This document shows, piece after piece, positions 11,558 to 53,633 of a DNA stretch of 55,828 bases; positions within the stretch are counted from its first letter, which is position 1; the number at the start of each line of letters is the position of its first letter. The stretch is from positions 78,615-134,442 of the forward strand of contig PFBI01000004.1 in assembly GCA_002773395.1 (NCBI GenBank), given 5' to 3'. The stretch is from Candidatus Kaiserbacteria bacterium CG10_big_fil_rev_8_21_14_0_10_47_16. Its GTDB lineage: Bacteria > Patescibacteriota > Minisyncoccia > Phycocordibacterales > UBA918. The position numbers and the translations under genes were made by a program. A model generated the notes under the pieces. The model had not been told where the DNA came from and ran no database searches. It saw only the letters and a program-made list of their open reading frames with translations.

Positions 11558-11735
11558 ATAGTTTTTCTTAACGCTAGACTCACAAGTTACTAAATAAAAT
11601 TTTAAGTTCCTTAAAATTGTATTAAGTACTCGCGAGCCCACCTCGCAGTTTTTGGTTTTAAATATAAGCGAAAACATGGCTCCGCCTCATCTAGCTAAAA
11701 AACTATCCGCAGGGATAGTTTTTCTTAACGCTAGA
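11558..11735. repeat. Copy A of a dispersed non-coding element: a 136-bp insert bounded by a perfect 21-bp direct repeat ATAGTTTTTCTTAACGCTAGA (11558-11578 and 11715-11735)
   Basis: The direct repeat was checked base by base. The right copy overlaps the dnaJ stop codon. The interior shares the blocks CTCACAAGTTACTAA, TTAAGTACTCGCGAGCCCACCTCG and GCGAAAACATGGCTCCGCC with copies B, C and D. Confidence 0.85.
11697..11723 (-). terminator. dnaJ terminator, bidirectional hairpin (A6-CTATCC-GCAG-GGATAG-T5)
   Basis: It starts 8 nt downstream of the dnaJ stop. The stem was checked by hand. Confidence 0.7.
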
Positions 11736-15460: not shown

Positions 15461-15672
15461 TTAACGTTTTAGTCACAAGTTGGTCATCGCTTCCCTCCCG
15501 AGTTGCTAAATAAAATACTTCACTACGTTCGTATTTATATTAAGCACTCTTGAGCACGCCTCGTTTGTGAAATAGTCCCCCAGACTATTTCACTACATTA
15601 GGAATAGTAAAAACATGACTCCGGCCGTCCAAGCGCAAAAAATGCCGCGAAGGCGGCATTTTTGTTAACGCT
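15461..15672. repeat. Copy B of the dispersed non-coding element (between rpsI and the grpE promoter)
   Basis: It starts at TTAACG and contains GTCACAAGTT, TTCACTACGTTCGTA, TTAAGCACTCTTGAGCACGCCTCG and AAAACATGACTCCGGCC. It ends with the hairpin A6-TGCCGC-GAAG-GCGGCA-T5 (15637-15663) followed by GTTAACGCT. Confidence 0.75.
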
Positions 15673-24539: not shown

Positions 24540-24644
24540 ATGTTCTTTAAAAAGGCCTCCCTGTAGCTCAATGGATAGAGCAACTCCGTCCTAAGGAGAA
24601 GATGTAGGTTCGATTCCTACTGGGGAGACCTTTTTAAAGAACAT
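24540..24644 (+). repeat. Perfect 16-bp inverted repeat ATGTTCTTTAAAAAGG / CCTTTTTAAAGAACAT clamping the tRNA-Arg gene
   Basis: Arms at 24540-24555 and 24629-24644 were checked base by base. They stack on the acceptor stem with a single C/A mismatch. Confidence 0.9.
24557..24628 (+). tRNA. tRNA-Arg (anticodon CCU)
   Basis: Hand-folded cloverleaf: acceptor CTCCCTG/TGGGGAG (two GU pairs), D stem GCTC/GAGC, anticodon stem CTCC/GGAG with loop GTCCTAA, 4-nt variable region, T arm GTAGG-TTCGATT-CCTAC, discriminator A. It has an unusual C1-G72 pair and no encoded CCA. Confidence 0.8.
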
Positions 24645-24695
24645 GGAGAAAACGATGTGGGTTCGATTCCTGCTGGGGACACTTGAACGGACAGT

Positions 24696-24752
24696 CTAAC
24701 GTAAAACACAAACGGCCGGCATTCCATGCCGGCCGTTTGTGTTTTACGTTAG
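24696..24752. terminator. 57-nt near-perfect palindrome (27-bp stem, 3-nt centre) between the tRNA locus (+) and the glutaredoxin gene (-)
   Basis: CTAACGTAAAACACAAACGGCCGGCAT-TCC-ATGCCGGCCGTTTGTGTTTTACGTTAG was paired position by position. It sits between convergent transcription units. Confidence 0.7.
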
Positions 24753-24757
24753 TCTAT

Positions 24758-24991
24758 CTAGACCTTTAGAAGTTCACGGAGTTTTGCTTCGTCAAATCCG
24801 ACGATAACATCGTCACCGATGCGGATAACTGGTACACCGAGTTGTCCCGTCAGCTCAACCATCTCCTGTCTCTTTGCAGCGTCTTCTGCAACATTGATAT
24901 CTTCGAATGCAACATTGTTTTCTTTAAAGAATTCCTTTGCTGCGTGACAAAAGTGGCAAGTGGGTGTGCTGTAAATTGTTACTGTTTCCAT
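24758..24991 (-). CDS. Glutaredoxin/NrdH-like redoxin
   Basis: 77-aa ORF with TIYSTPTCHFC (CxxC after beta1) and GVPVIRIGD. Confidence 0.8.
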   Translation of the reverse strand: METVTIYSTPTCHFCHAAKEFFKENNVAFEDINVAEDAAKRQEMVELTGQLGVPVIRIGDDVIVGFDEAKLRELLKV

Positions 24992-31598: not shown

Positions 31599-31723
31599 AA
31601 TATTACTTCCCAAATAATTACTAATTTGTCCTTATAGCATACCACGGTCATATCCGTAGCTTCGGTTTTTAGTGTGTTGATATACAGAAAAAGGCACCCT
31701 TTCGGGCACCTTTTTCATGTATA

Positions 31724-32058
31724 TTTGTCTATAAGCCGGATTCTGTTCTCACGTGAGTGAGTGATAGTCATTTACCTAGGTGTACTGTTGCCAGTACACT
31801 CGAGCGGCTCAAACCTACGCGAACGTAGGAGTACGGCCTTGCATGCAGGTAAGGATTTAGCCGTTTCACCTCTCATGTTGCCATGAGAGCTATTCCACAA
31901 TTGCGGAATCCCGTTTCTTTCGATCGGGGCGTCTCTGCTCGCACCTCTACCGCTCTCGCGGTCGACGGGTGTTACCCGCTACCCTCCTCCACGGTAAACC
32001 GTGGGCATGTCCGGACTTTCCTCTAACTACCGAAGTAGTTAGCGACTATCAGACATCG
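31724..32058 (-). ncRNA. rnpB: RNase P RNA (bacterial type)
   Basis: The minus strand carries the universal P4 strands GAGGAAAGTCCGGAC (complement of 32006-32020) and ACAGAATCCGGCTTAT (complement of 31731-31746). P3 is a hairpin TAACTAC-TTCG-GTAGTTA. P1 is TGTCT/AGACA and P2 is ATAGTC/GACTAT. A TATAAT lies about 10 nt upstream. The ends are approximate. Confidence 0.9.
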
Positions 32059-32089
32059 GTATTATACAATAAAAAGTTATTGAGAGCAA

Positions 32090-34897: not shown

Positions 34898-35067
34898 GGT
34901 CACGAGTTGCCAGTTCGTTCGTGGGGTCAAGTTCGTAATTCACTACGTTCATAACGACTCCCTCCCCGAGCTCACCTGTTTTCGCATTAGATATAGCGAA
35001 AACATGGCTCCGCTTTCCACACACTAAAAAACTCCCGCAGGGGAGTTTTTCTTAACGTGTGTGGACC
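34898..35067. repeat. Copy C of the dispersed non-coding element, ending against a tRNA-3'-end-like sequence
   Basis: GGTCACGAGTTGC, TTCACTACGTTCATAACG, GCGAAAACATGGCTCCGC and the hairpin A6-CTCCC-GCAG-GGGAG-T5 (35026-35053) are followed by CTTAACGTGTGTGGACC. Confidence 0.75.
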
Positions 35068-50914: not shown

Positions 50915-51112
50915 TTACTTATGTCGGTAATCGTATGCTGCGCCAATTGCAATTCCCAAAGCGATGCCGAGACCAATGCCGGTGCTCGAGCCGTTGTCAC
51001 CAAATACTATTGGGCCAAAAATAATTCCAAAGACTATACCGAACACAACCCCAAGAGCTATTCCCCTAGGCTCCTTTGAGCCAATTTCTTTTTTTGTTTT
51101 GTCATCTTTCAT
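50915..51112 (-). CDS. Small glycine-zipper membrane protein, 65 aa
   Basis: GIALGVVFGIVFGIIFGPIVFG and GIGLGIALGIAIGAA repeats. Confidence 0.5.
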   Translation of the reverse strand: MKDDKTKKEIGSKEPRGIALGVVFGIVFGIIFGPIVFGDNGSSTGIGLGIALGIAIGAAYDYRHK

Positions 51113-51136
51113 ATATGAAGTATAACAAATTGTATT

Positions 51137-51153
51137 AGCTGCCCGACAGGGAC
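51137..51153 (-). repeat. Truncated tRNA-Gln 3'-end copy 3 (17 nt)
   Basis: AGCTGCCCGACAGGGAC is identical to 53437-53453. Confidence 0.85.
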
Positions 51154-51196
51154 GATGTTGGAACTTTTTTAGAGGAAGAAACTATCAGAGTGATGC

Positions 51197-51760
51197 TTAA
51201 TGTATCTCAGCAAAATCGATAATTTTCTTGGCGACTTCTTCGGGTGATACGTCAGTATTATCAATAATCAGATTATTCTGTAGAGGCGCTGTCTTAAAAT
51301 AATCATATTTTGCTAGCGAATCTTTCAGTATTTCTATAGTTGATATCTTCCCCCATTCCTTACGATTACTTTCAGTAACCCGTTGGAGTAGTGTTTCATT
51401 TGAGGTGGTGAGGTTCACACCGTAAAATTCTCCACCATTTTTCTGAGTTATCTCTTCAAGCCGTGTTGCATACCACTCGTCACTTTCGCCATTGGGATAC
51501 AGGTAATTATGAGCATGTGCACCTGTCATAATGATACCACTTACATTTTCCTGAAGAGCCATTTCTAGAATTTCAAATCGTAACTTAACAATGTACATAT
51601 CACCTTTTGGATTTCCACGTTCAAATATTGAACGTACCAAATCAGTAGTGAGGTGATTATGAGCTAATTTAAAACCGGTAGCCAAACTCAAGGCTTTTGC
51701 TGTGGTGAGCTTTCCTGTCGCAGGAGCTCCGTAAATATAAATTACTTTGGTTTTTTTCAT
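51197..51760 (-). CDS. P-loop NTPase/kinase-like protein (AAA_33 or small-molecule-kinase-like)
   Basis: 187-aa ORF with Walker A GAPATGKLT at the N-terminus. It is flanked by the 12-bp direct repeat CGATGTTGGAAC (51153-51164 and 51829-51840). Confidence 0.6.
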   Translation of the reverse strand: MKKTKVIYIYGAPATGKLTTAKALSLATGFKLAHNHLTTDLVRSIFERGNPKGDMYIVKLRFEILEMALQENVSGIIMTGAHAHNYLYPNGESDEWYATRLEEITQKNGGEFYGVNLTTSNETLLQRVTESNRKEWGKISTIEILKDSLAKYDYFKTAPLQNNLIIDNTDVSPEEVAKKIIDFAEIH

Positions 51761-52106
51761 ATAAAAAGTATATCAAAGTCTCAAAGCACTCTACCTGTCA
51801 TTCGAATAAGCCAGCTAGTTGTCTGTTGCGATGTTGGAACTCGTGTGTAAATAAAATAACCCCTGGACATGCTTGCGCACGCCAGGGGTTTGTCGCGGAA
51901 GGTCTTCACAGGGTATGCTCCCGCACACAGATTCCCTGCTAAGGTTGAGAATTCAAGTCAGCGTACCCAACCTAATATAGCTGACAGGTTTGGTCTTAAT
52001 GATGCATAAGCCCATACACAAGCTCGGAAAGACCGAAAGCCTTACTTGTGCAAACTTAGACTCGCACTTGGTAAGATAACATATATAAAAATACTGTCAA
52101 CCCCCC

Positions 52107-52128
52107 AGCTGCCCGACAGGGACTCGAA
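52107..52128 (-). repeat. Truncated tRNA-Gln 3'-end copy 2 (22 nt)
   Basis: AGCTGCCCGACAGGGACTCGAA is identical to 53437-53458. The sequence diverges where the T-stem 5' strand would be, so no T arm can form. Confidence 0.9.
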
Positions 52129-52373
52129 GCTTACAGCTTCAGTACAGGTTGTCGATATTTTTGTTCGGTTGTCGCCTCCTAAAATATCAGGCAACAATAT
52201 CAGGCAACCTTTTCGAGCCCTTAGAAAACAGTCCACTGGACTATTTCCTCGGCCAGCTTGTAACGCAAAAATCCGCTCACCGCGGATTTTCACTAACAAG
52301 CTGGCCTCGTCGGTCTCGTAATTTTTTCCATCAAGCCCCAGAAGGCTTTTTTACTGATATCTATTTTATCATT

Positions 52374-53225
52374 TTAACCCTCTTCGGAATAAGGCTTTAT
52401 TTCATCATCAAAAATATCAAATCCAGAAGGCAATCTTCTTTTTAAAATAGAGGCTGCCAACGTCCAATACATCAAAGTCATAATTAAAAATAAAATATAT
52501 TTTATAAAAACAGGAGTTTCCAAGCCACTTTTAGGTATAAATTCTGTAACTAAAACAAAAAAAGGTGTGATTATCAGAAAAATTCCTAAGATTTTTATTC
52601 TACTCCTCCTTTTTATCTTTTTAAAATAATCTGAAATAGAAGGAATTCTGTTTGCAATTGGATCACCTATTTTTCTCACAGAACCGAAACCTTTTATGTC
52701 ACCCGTAATTTTAATATTATCACCAGAATCACCAGTATGAGAAAATTGAATTATTATACCTTCATTCTTGTCAAAATAATCAAATTTTATTTCTAATTCA
52801 TTTTGTAAATGTTTACCTGGGTCATCAGGATTAACAACAGGAACAATATTAAAACCATTAGATTCATTACTTTTATGGATTATCTCAAAAGCAAGAAAAT
52901 TAGAACCATTAACGCACTTAACTTTCATAGGATTGCTCTTTGCAACATCATCGTAATTTATTGTTTCACTTCCGGAATTCCAAAGTGCCACCCTAGCAAT
53001 AGAGAGATTTTCAACTTTTGAGCCCAGGTAGCTTATATCTAAATCATTTATTCCACCTACAGCATTCTTAATTAAGTTAGTGCTTCTAACAGCATAAAGT
53101 GGCTTTCTGTTTTTTATACTTTTTCTATAAAAAACAAAAGTTAAGATAAAACCAATAATTGTCAAAAATACAAATATGTAATCTGTTGGAGTAATATTAT
53201 TTATAATTTCTTTAATTTTTTCCAT
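52374..53225 (-). CDS. Hypothetical membrane protein, 283 aa, very AT-rich
   Basis: One N-terminal and two C-terminal TM helices flank a beta-rich middle domain. Two sampled lines give about 25-27% GC. No family was recognised. Confidence 0.6.
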   Translation of the reverse strand: MEKIKEIINNITPTDYIFVFLTIIGFILTFVFYRKSIKNRKPLYAVRSTNLIKNAVGGINDLDISYLGSKVENLSIARVALWNSGSETINYDDVAKSNPMKVKCVNGSNFLAFEIIHKSNESNGFNIVPVVNPDDPGKHLQNELEIKFDYFDKNEGIIIQFSHTGDSGDNIKITGDIKGFGSVRKIGDPIANRIPSISDYFKKIKRRSRIKILGIFLIITPFFVLVTEFIPKSGLETPVFIKYILFLIMTLMYWTLAASILKRRLPSGFDIFDDEIKPYSEEG

Positions 53226-53267
53226 GAAATAATTCTAACACCTCGTACTCCGAACCTATCTCAAACT

Positions 53268-53286
53268 TGCTGCCCGACAGGGACTC
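53268..53286 (-). repeat. Truncated tRNA-Gln 3'-end copy 1 (19 nt)
   Basis: GCTGCCCGACAGGGACTCG is identical to 53438-53456. Confidence 0.9.
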
Positions 53287-53436
53287 GGTCACGAGTTACT
53301 AACTCACTCCGTTCATAAGTACTCTCGACCCCGACGGGTAAAACAGTCCACCGGACTGTTTTCTTCCGTCTTTCTCGTTCCTGTCTCGGCGCTACGACAC
53401 GTAAAAAGACTTGCAGAAGCAAGTCTTTTTACGTGT
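53287..53436. repeat. Copy D of the dispersed non-coding element, lying exactly between a tRNA-Gln 3' fragment and the intact tRNA-Gln
   Basis: GTCACGAGTTACTAAC, CTCACTCCGTTCATAAGTACTCTCGACCCCGACGG, the hairpin AAAACAGTCC-ACC-GGACTGTTTT and the hairpin A5-GACTTGC-AGAA-GCAAGTC-T5 are followed by ACGTGT. Confidence 0.75.
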
Positions 53437-53438
53437 AG

Positions 53439-53509
53439 CTGCCCGACAGGGACTCGAACCCCAATTACTTGGACCAAAACCAAGCGTCCTACCATTAGAC
53501 GATCGGGCA
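53439..53509 (-). tRNA. tRNA-Gln (anticodon UUG)
   Basis: Hand-folded 71-nt cloverleaf: acceptor TGCCCGA/TCGGGCA with the bacterial Gln U1:A72 pair, G73 discriminator, D stem GTCT/GGAC, anticodon arm CTTGG-TTTTGGT-CCAAG, T arm TGGGG-TTCGAGT-CCCTG. Confidence 0.9.
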
Positions 53510-53633
53510 ATATTCTTTTGTGTTCTTGCCCATGTTTTTGAGTGTAACCAAAATCGATCGGGCAAGATCATCTACTCGACGCTCTTTCAAGCGGAGTGCA
53601 CCTATAGTGCCGAAAAAACAGTACTAAATCAAG

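Follow-up and report, generated by a model that had tools for sequence, protein, structure and literature searches.

The DNA considered here is a window of 55,828 nucleotides (nt) from Candidatus Kaiserbacteria bacterium CG10_big_fil_rev_8_21_14_0_10_47_16 (assembly GCA_002773395.1, contig PFBI01000004.1, positions 78,615–134,442), in which the 2.3 kb behind the tRNA-Gln(UUG) gene are a stack of three small insertions. At its distal end each insertion has a short junction module and, after it, the tRNA tail repeated on the same strand; the repeated part begins within the T loop and ends just beyond the 3' end. At least two of the three insertions are members of widespread protein-less hairpin element families, which accumulate behind tRNA genes of groundwater-type bacteria. 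The locus is classed here among tRNA-targeted integrative cassettes, with two or more undescribed families of such elements as its building blocks; literature, exact-sequence and keyword searches found no description of them.

The anchor of the array is an intact tRNA-Gln(UUG) gene on the minus strand (53438/9–53509; ARAGORN; 56.8 bits with the Rfam tRNA model), in which the CCA is not encoded. Read as its reverse complement, the 16-mer GCTGCCCGACAGGGAC covers the last part of the T loop, the 3' strands of the T and acceptor stems, the discriminator and one further base. It occurs in four exact copies, all on the plus strand (51138, 52108, 53269 and 53438), while 0.04 copies are expected by chance and four were reached in 0 of 100 shuffles. 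One copy is the tRNA gene's 3' end; the other three lie downstream of the gene in the same orientation. The corresponding tail copies, read on the minus strand, are fragment 1 (53269–53287; 19 nt, beginning at T-loop base C56 and ending one base past the discriminator), fragment 2 (52107–52128; 22 nt) and fragment 3 (51137–51153; 17 nt, or 51136–51153 and 18 nt if both bases past the tRNA end are counted). None of the three can form a T arm, since each begins within the T loop. An earlier analysis made from the letters alone, here called the sequence-only reading, had described an intact gene followed by three exact, same-orientation copies incapable of forming a T arm, and this description stands, as do the extents it gave for fragments 2 and 3; fragment 1 had been placed one base off, at 53268–53286.

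That reading had also considered that an assembly artefact might undo it. Collapsed or chimeric repeats have next to no probability as the source of the array. Short Logan contigs do break at 52128–52153, beside fragment 2, because the conserved core there reaches about 30 times the genome depth in the community. The whole array is nevertheless present in four independent assemblies (JGI, NCBI GCA_009991995.1, ENA and Logan) at 99.7–100% identity, including contigs of 396 kb and 134 kb, and this agreement shows that it is not produced by assembly.

The tail copies had been taken for att-like remnants. Fragment 2 proved to be no bare att scar but the integral 3' arm of a structured element of about 150 nt carrying a split inverted copy of the tail. 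This element, designated E (52107–52258, minus strand, tail copy included), is made up of G1, an inverted copy of the 3' strand of the acceptor stem (52248–52258); a hairpin (52225–52246); G2, an inverted copy of the T loop and T stem (52212–52222); and a core, AAGGTT...AACCTGTACTGAAGCTGTAAGC (52129–52211), which abuts fragment 2. At one position G1 departs from perfect complementarity to the acceptor 3' strand, perhaps because the element came from a slightly different tRNA-Gln. When aquifer and groundwater contigs were aligned to the region, the stretch adjoining fragment 2 (52120–52161) reached up to 30 times the depth of this genome, and in other contigs it was preceded by different tRNA-3'-end-like sequences.

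Relatives of E, termed type-1, were collected by searching JGI metagenomes for exact matches to the 21-mer GCTTACAGCTTCAGTACAGGT (52129–52149); this gave 99 stretches from many habitats. In most loci with enough upstream DNA the 21-mer lies 70–190 nt behind a same-strand tRNA gene of varying isotype, and in most loci the 21 nt behind it repeat the tRNA's final 21 nt (T54 to discriminator). Among the 115 distinct tRNAs on these contigs, 51, belonging to 17 isotypes, have their last 16 nt repeated no more than 5 kb downstream, and none (0/115) has them repeated upstream. Read in the sense of the tRNA, the tRNA gene is succeeded by a terminator hairpin (as a rule), then by G1, a variable hairpin, G2, the core and finally the tail copy. 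The first 9–11 nt of the tail (nnnnTCGAA) have their reverse complement in G2, which is perfect over 9 nt in 52 of 83 elements; the remainder of the tail has its reverse complement in G1, where at least 10 of 12 positions match in 15 of the 83 elements as against 4 of 409 controls. The bases complemented by G1 are the genomic ones past the tRNA end and not CCA; in locus L037 (the comparison loci carry L numbers) GTGACCCTA is preceded by gct and not by TGG. The junction falls within T-loop positions 56–60, several tail copies consisting of TTCGAR, one or two extra bases and the tail from about position 59. The direct repeat measures 17 to about 70 nt and may run past the tRNA into the terminator, as in L106 (about 70 nt). 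Some tail copies differ from the adjacent tRNA.

Core and tail together are predicted to form a three-way junction. Stem A is G2 paired with the tail copy; stem B is AGGUU..AACCU plus the variable hairpin; and stem C is GAAGC-UGUAA-GCUUC, of 5–6 bp with the loop UGUAA, its 3' strand overlapping the first TTC of the tail. A covariance model, R1, was built from 46 elements and found 131 copies in the 99 contigs, tandem ones included. In the model-fitted alignment of these copies 95% of cells pair and 15 of the 19 pairs change on both sides, which none of 500 shuffles equalled and to which slid controls were far inferior; compensatory variants of stem C include GAAAC/GTTTC, GATCC/GGATC, GAACC/GGTTC and GGTCA/TGACC. 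The model has a single match in the window (52107–52222; 78.3 bits, E 1.7e-18), and E fits the type-1 definition in possessing G2, a three-way-junction core and a tail copy downstream of a same-strand tRNA. E sits 1.3 kb behind its tRNA with cargo in between, as do its relatives in L033, L045 and L085.

Conserved pairing of this kind is also what structured small-RNA genes tied to tRNA loci would display. Such genes, acting as regulators, processing signals or decoys and expressed from the tRNA transcript or from promoters of their own, could have formed arrays by local duplication. In addition to the compensatory changes in all three stems, terminators and TTGACA promoters flank the units, and family members occur in metatranscriptome contigs, albeit at low depth, without direction and possibly as DNA carry-over. 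Folding shows no strand asymmetry, the difference between sense and antisense being -1.0 +/- 3.7 kcal/mol with 55 GU pairs in the sense and 88 in the antisense strand, and within stem A the GU and AC counts are about equal. This symmetry is compatible with DNA-level pairing, or with arms that have not yet had time to drift, and not with a long-selected RNA. Nor did Rfam 15, self-cleaving ribozymes and tRNA-like RNAs included, return anything except tRNA and RNase P in gathering mode for the window and 12 loci; in E-value mode, for the region and five loci, only chance-level matches fell over the elements. The same core also stands behind tRNAs of at least 17 isotypes, with inverted and direct tail copies that are specific to each locus, and we regard the small-RNA explanation as rather unlikely.

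The best-scoring type-1 element, with a tRNA-Ser-like tail, is found in L055 (Ga0210043_1000328, 386–483), which comes from the same metagenome as the window contig. In sequencing run X1 the contig carrying the left flank of L055 has a depth of 15.7, against 16.1 for the window genome; on account of this similarity the window genome probably holds further type-1 copies at other tRNAs.

The first cassette, directly behind the tRNA, is element D (53287–53437, minus strand; nhmmer family matches). It contains a bidirectional terminator hairpin (53397–53436), a degenerate inverted copy of the tRNA tail on the plus strand (53374–53394) and a hairpin of the same kind as that of one type-1 subfamily (53340–53362). 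By virtue of these three features D is a second core type, type-2, with the overall layout of type-1. In the tRNA sense its core ends in ...AACTCGTGACCG, followed by AGTCCCTGTCGGGCAGC. The combination of YSTGACCG with a tRNA tail repeated from upstream was found at six independent loci (the window, L031, L033, L068, L092 and L113) and for two control motifs at none. The sequence-only reading had assigned D to a dispersed family, and nhmmer recovered this family with four copies in the window, the other three being A (11580–11714), B (15496–15655) and C (34898–35045), with E-values of 1e-25 to 1e-37; further matches were obtained outside the window in L090, L067, L068 and other loci. D is an element of the same kind as E, and not filler between two junctions. 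In L031 and L033, type-1 and type-2 units share an array behind a single tRNA.

The sites occupied by copies A, B and C are the 3' ends of protein genes (after dnaJ, near grpE) rather than of tRNAs. With their surroundings the copies span 11558–11735, 15478–15660 and 34898–35050, and their flanking repeats share the motif CGTTAAGAAAAA. Copy A is bounded by a perfect 21-nt repeat (11558–11578 and 11715–11735) and also holds an interrupted inverted copy of it, which pairs with the upstream repeat as a terminator hairpin.

The third cassette begins directly after fragment 2 with the best sigma-70-like promoter of the region (52073–52100, minus strand; TTGACA, a 16-nt spacer, TG and TATCTT). The promoter belongs to stretch F (51841–52106, minus strand), a non-coding stretch of 266 nt that also contains a terminator hairpin and folds better than its shuffles (z = -3.4). 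Stretch F may be a small RNA gene, and its folding counts in favour of the small-RNA explanation given above. It is followed by the upstream copy of a third type of junction motif, GTTCCAACATCG (51829–51840, minus strand), and then by degenerate tRNA-tail-like sequence. The downstream type-3 motif (51153–51164) is joined to fragment 3, and the two together (51136–51164, minus strand) make up the outer end of the array. Between them, as a cassette nested within cassette 3, lies a gene for a P-loop kinase-like protein of 187 amino acids (51197–51760, minus strand; weak AAA_18/AAA_33 matches in Pfam and NCBIfam). The 12-nt direct repeat CGATGTTGGAAC that brackets this gene (51153–51164 and 51829–51840) is exact, as had been reported from the sequence.

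The kinase-like protein has 33 homologues at 52–74% identity, one of which is named from Candidatus Taylorbacteria. A homologue with 73% identity lies in a different tRNA-Gln(UUG) array, L123, where it is bracketed by the same type-3 motif (also L123/L124). That array opens with two type-1 units, a promoter with an open reading frame (ORF) of 78 amino acids, the motif GTTCCAACTTCG with tail-like sequence and the kinase homologue. These are followed by TTCTAACATCG with tail-like sequence, an ORF of 130 amino acids, TTCCAACATCG with tail-like sequence, a type-1 unit and further units. Two genomes with different cassette sets behind tRNA-Gln(UUG) thus share the kinase cassette and its bracket. 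The sequence-only reading had proposed comparison of related loci for variable intervals, and L123 supplies it, the kinase cassette being common and the other cassettes different. The type-3 motif also occurs twice in a tRNA-Gln(CUG) array (L064). A 64% homologue of the kinase stands in a histidine-biosynthesis operon, between hisD-like and aminotransferase genes (L125, 3001–3564); because this is an ordinary operon, the family is not intrinsically mobile cargo.

Arrays of this kind recur. Tandem units stand behind one tRNA in L058, L080, L078, L047, L090, L098 and L031, the last with four tail copies, and promoter-bearing cargo arrays are present in L031, L033, L078 and L123; L058 is a further array with cargo. 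The cargo lies between the tRNA, or the preceding tail copy, and the junction module. Its ORFs are mutually unrelated and without family assignment (152 amino acids in L033, 179 in L045, 134 in L085, 72 in L078 and 283 in the window), and units that follow a tail copy often start with a TTGACA promoter (L031, L033 and L123). Across roughly 100 loci the intervals measure about 100–1300 nt, and the protein-less elements about 100–190 nt. Unrelated cargo genes inside the units, and array content that varies among genomes, speak against small-RNA genes multiplied by local duplication.

Two comparisons point to movement. On one contig, L029, tRNA-Lys and tRNA-Leu each have an identical core behind them, with a G1 and a tail copy specific to the locus; an identical core at two different tRNAs of one contig is again not what the small-RNA explanation leads one to expect. 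L126 and L127 are 98.7% identical over 3.9 kb up to the exact 3' end of a tRNA (position 2695/2696) and unrelated beyond it. The tRNA at the break is tRNA-Ser-like, ARAGORN reading its anticodon as 'act'. At the break L127 has a type-2 unit with a truncated tail copy, and L126 has only a terminator, followed by a PAP2 gene. Further signs of mobility are the kinase cassette that L123 shares amid otherwise different cassettes and the foreign base composition of the cargo gene in the window.

With these observations in hand we lean, though not strongly, towards the units being serial, trans-mobilised, DNA-level insertions into the T-loop region of the tRNA gene. Units would insert successively into this region, the newest coming to lie beside the tRNA, by means of a recombination activity encoded elsewhere and supplied in trans. 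The inverted and direct tail copies, as single-stranded DNA, would fold into a duplex that mimics the target and serves as the recombination site, much as integron attC sites or the folded attP of CTX phage do. Two proposals of the sequence-only reading are taken up here: repeated accretion at one tRNA, in that the copies mark serial insertions, and a cassette-array-like system using a tRNA-derived site and mobilised in trans, which fits the related loci.

Several results weigh against serial insertion by a trans-acting enzyme. A recombinase for the units was found neither among 28 window proteins, a subset of the window ORFs, nor among the 25 most frequent Pfam families of the 150 element-nearest ORFs. 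For this locus the Logan contigs of six aquifer and groundwater runs (X1–X6), in which rare variants are dropped, showed neither an excised circle nor a supported empty site or alternative junction, and every near-identical assembly has the identical array. A direct repeat that ranges from 17 to about 70 nt fits poorly with any one fixed geometry of cutting. In loci where tail copy and tRNA diverge, it is mostly the tRNA that the inverted copy matches (11 loci as against 2), a preference that a simple model of a folded att site carried by the element does not predict. Relatives of stretch F were not found among all fetched loci, nor did it match Rfam, and the comparators for the type-3 junction are three tRNA-Gln arrays only. 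The metatranscriptome contigs mentioned above belong on this side as well, with the same reservations as to their depth, direction and origin, and the structure counts for R1 derive from elements of which the first were preselected by the exact 21-mer and the match of G2.

The search for an enzyme covered both the window and its relatives. Pfam detected no recombinase domain in the 28 window proteins, in line with the absence of a visible integrase noted from the sequence. The top 25 Pfam families among the 150 ORFs nearest to elements included no recurrent recombinase, transposase or reverse transcriptase (RVT), and no Cas1 gene was found nearby among the window proteins and element-nearest ORFs. 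A collection of phages was matched only by the tRNA-Gln, plasmids gave no match, and the core motif had none in IMG/VR. Three joints (51153->53440, 53297->53438 and 53302->53436) appeared as 25–33-nt matches in short contigs of other organisms. As candidate empty sites they were rejected: a focused alignment of 51060–51260 gave one junction and did not reproduce the joint at fragment 3, and they are not counted as evidence. When close relatives were sought for a comparison of presence and absence, the nearest homologue of the flanking PAP2 gene was only 61% identical, and its contigs stop inside tRNA-Gln; the single GTDB genome match (51% identity) is without synteny to the locus.

Three integrase islands or prophages could instead have integrated in tandem at tRNA-Gln and then lost nearly all of their DNA. 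Tail copies running from the T loop to the 3' end are the classic att identity block, the G+C content of a cargo gene is foreign, and tandem accretion with scattered partial tRNAs is known for the tycheposons of Prochlorococcus (bioRxiv 10.1101/2020.12.28.424599). The intervals, however, hold a membrane-protein gene, the kinase-like gene and non-coding DNA, with no integrase or fragment of one, and are small throughout the loci compared. What adjoins the tail copies is not random debris but a conserved module found at many tRNAs in many genomes, and each unit has an inverted tail copy; tyrosine-integrase logic leaves this copy, and the single core for at least 17 isotypes, unexplained. The sequence-only reading had entertained decayed integrase elements, which is difficult to maintain with a conserved junction module before each tail copy, and we consider such decay quite improbable.

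Cut-and-paste or Cas1-like transposition of a miniature element, with a long target-site duplication at the tRNA 3' end, would account for the direct repeats of 17–22 nt that flank the units and for the perfect 21-nt repeat around copy A of the D family at a site that is not a tRNA. Casposons make duplications of 14–15 bp at tRNA 3' ends. The repeat length here is not fixed, constant terminal inverted repeats are lacking and the inverted arms are tRNA-specific. Some tail copies, moreover, differ from the adjacent tRNA, and neither Cas1 nor a transposase is among the 25 most frequent Pfam families near the elements. The probability of transposition of this type is accordingly put low.

Among known systems, serial insertion behind tRNA genes appears closest in documented behaviour to the tandem accretion of tycheposons, although these carry integrases and are far larger. 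Tycheposons are tandem tRNA-integrating islands with partial tRNA copies, proposed as the source of genomic islands in Prochlorococcus (bioRxiv 10.1101/2020.12.28.424599). As in the present case, the insertion hotspots are tRNA genes of a streamlined genome, partial tRNA copies flank the DNA, later arrivals push earlier ones outward and the cargo is small. Tycheposons encode their own integrase and are kilobases long, whereas the units described here are of 100–1300 nt without a recombinase, end in a conserved structured module with an inverted tail copy and use one core family for at least 17 isotypes. With the classical tyrosine-integrase island the units share the distal direct repeat of the 3' part of the tRNA from the T loop, but not the integrase inside the element.

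Integron cassettes and Xer-dependent elements seem nearest in logic, though their defining features were not encountered. Integrons likewise form arrays of one orientation in which each cassette is closed by a foldable, imperfectly palindromic site, the recombinase lies outside the cassette and the newest cassette is beside the platform (at this locus the order is inferred). Their platform is attI with IntI and Pc, and here it is a tRNA gene. The attC boxes (RYYYAAC ... GTTRRRY) are absent from the junction AAGGTT...AACCTGTACTGAAGCTGTAAGC|TTCGA, as judged by eye and not with an attC model. Integron cassettes have no promoters, in contrast to the TTGACA promoters found here; most of the present units are without an ORF, and their palindrome arms are copies of tRNA tails. 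Integrative mobile elements exploiting Xer (IMEX), such as CTX phage, use the host XerCD and a folded single-stranded attP. They too have no recombinase of their own, possess inverted repeats that mimic the target duplex and accumulate in tandem at one site. Their target is dif, while here it is the T loop and 3' end of a tRNA; the elements are tiny and not phage-like, and no link to Xer was seen.

MITEs (miniature inverted-repeat transposable elements), repetitive extragenic palindromes and bacterial interspersed mosaic elements (REP/BIME), Correia elements and Rickettsia palindromic elements (RPE) are similarly small, protein-less, hairpin-forming, multi-copy and presumably mobilised in trans. 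In MITEs the terminal inverted repeats are constant and the duplication is short and always equally long, where the present elements have tRNA-specific arms and a long, variable repeat; orientation and position relative to tRNA genes are strict here, unlike in MITEs and the other small repeats. Segments complementary to the target are also carried by IS110 elements (bridge RNA), group II introns (exon- and intron-binding sites, EBS/IBS) and retroviruses (primer-binding sites). In these units there is no DEDD recombinase, reverse transcriptase or intron ribozyme, and the complementary segment is a plain 21-nt reverse complement with an interruption, which follows genomic bases rather than CCA. 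Priming by tRNA, as in retroelements, finds no counterpart, given that G1 has no CCA complement where CCA is unencoded and no RVT is among the top 25 families.

Four other interpretations of the units were rejected. A tRNA-like fold, with acceptor stem and T arm around an inserted loop, is at odds with G1 and G2 being reverse complements of the 3' strand that extend beyond the stems, and not copies of the tRNA 5' half. A primer-binding site was discarded on the grounds that the complement follows the genomic bases and not CCA. A hammerhead-like three-way junction was dropped, the conserved hammerhead core being absent and Rfam negative. An origin of the inverted copy by self-primed snap-back at the terminator was set aside after the spacers flanking the terminator in L024 were found not to be complementary.

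A more far-reaching version of serial insertion is possible, if doubtful. The core of about 100 nt might be self-retargeting mobile DNA that inserts beside any tRNA gene or within its T loop and writes inverted and direct copies of the local tail into itself. The resulting hairpin sites would allow a host without classical mobile elements to stack promoter-bearing cassettes, an integron-like capture of genes on tRNA genes in Patescibacteria and possibly beyond. If so, the element would carry a locus-specific 'guide' made from its own target. The re-matching of the inverted copy to each tRNA is to us the most interesting point; should the inverted copy direct insertion or result from it, a testable and possibly re-programmable principle of target recognition would be at hand.

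Patescibacteria, the candidate phyla radiation (CPR), have tiny genomes, and gene exchange among them is poorly understood. If the insertions do occur as proposed, recombinase-less cassettes anchored on tRNAs would be a route of gene gain and loss in these bacteria, and a cassette system would explain the small hypervariable patches behind their tRNAs. For annotation, the modules create pseudo-tRNA fragments and can pass for the att scars of integrases. They also break short-read assemblies, because the core is present at about 30 times genome depth in the community.

The cargo of cassette 2 is a gene for a membrane protein of 283 amino acids (52374–53225, minus strand; ORF list). Its G+C content of 28%, as against 46% for the window, is a foreign base composition and bears out the marked AT-richness remarked on earlier from the sequence. 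The AlphaFold2 model (predicted local distance difference test, pLDDT, 91.6) consists of a transmembrane (TM) helix, a beta-sandwich and two TM helices. The protein has no Pfam match and at most weak CBM3-like fold matches. A word-based search returned the protein alone and gave the misleading impression of an orphan; an exhaustive search showed a large, uncharacterised family of 3808 clusters (E<=1e-3) with lengths of about 270–280 amino acids. PADLOC and NCBIfam gave nothing useful for a reading of the cargo as defence genes.

The neighbours of tRNA-Gln encode PAP2 and YbjQ-domain proteins (Pfam). Upstream of the tRNA gene an 11-nt copy of its 5' end (53555–53565, minus strand), which the sequence-only reading had listed, matches 53500–53510 exactly and is the remnant of an older, larger duplication of the 5' half. 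In the relative L018, whose PAP2 protein is 61% identical, a longer 5' fragment (1940–2132) occupies the place homologous to window positions 53510–53633; it consists of the acceptor strand and D arm, a palindromic insert of 74 nt and the anticodon arm up to the loop. From this fuller copy it follows that the duplication on the 5' side is old and that the window copy has an internal deletion.

A second tRNA of the window with a tail copy is tRNA-Arg(CCU) (24557–24630), where model R1 has no match. Sixteen nt beyond its end lies an 83% copy of its last 36 nt (24647–24682), and beyond that a hairpin with arms of 33 nt (24690–24758); the gene is bracketed by a 22-nt inverted repeat (24540–24561 and 24623–24644). 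The window also contains a bacterial class A RNase P RNA gene (31716–32061, minus strand; 117 bits).

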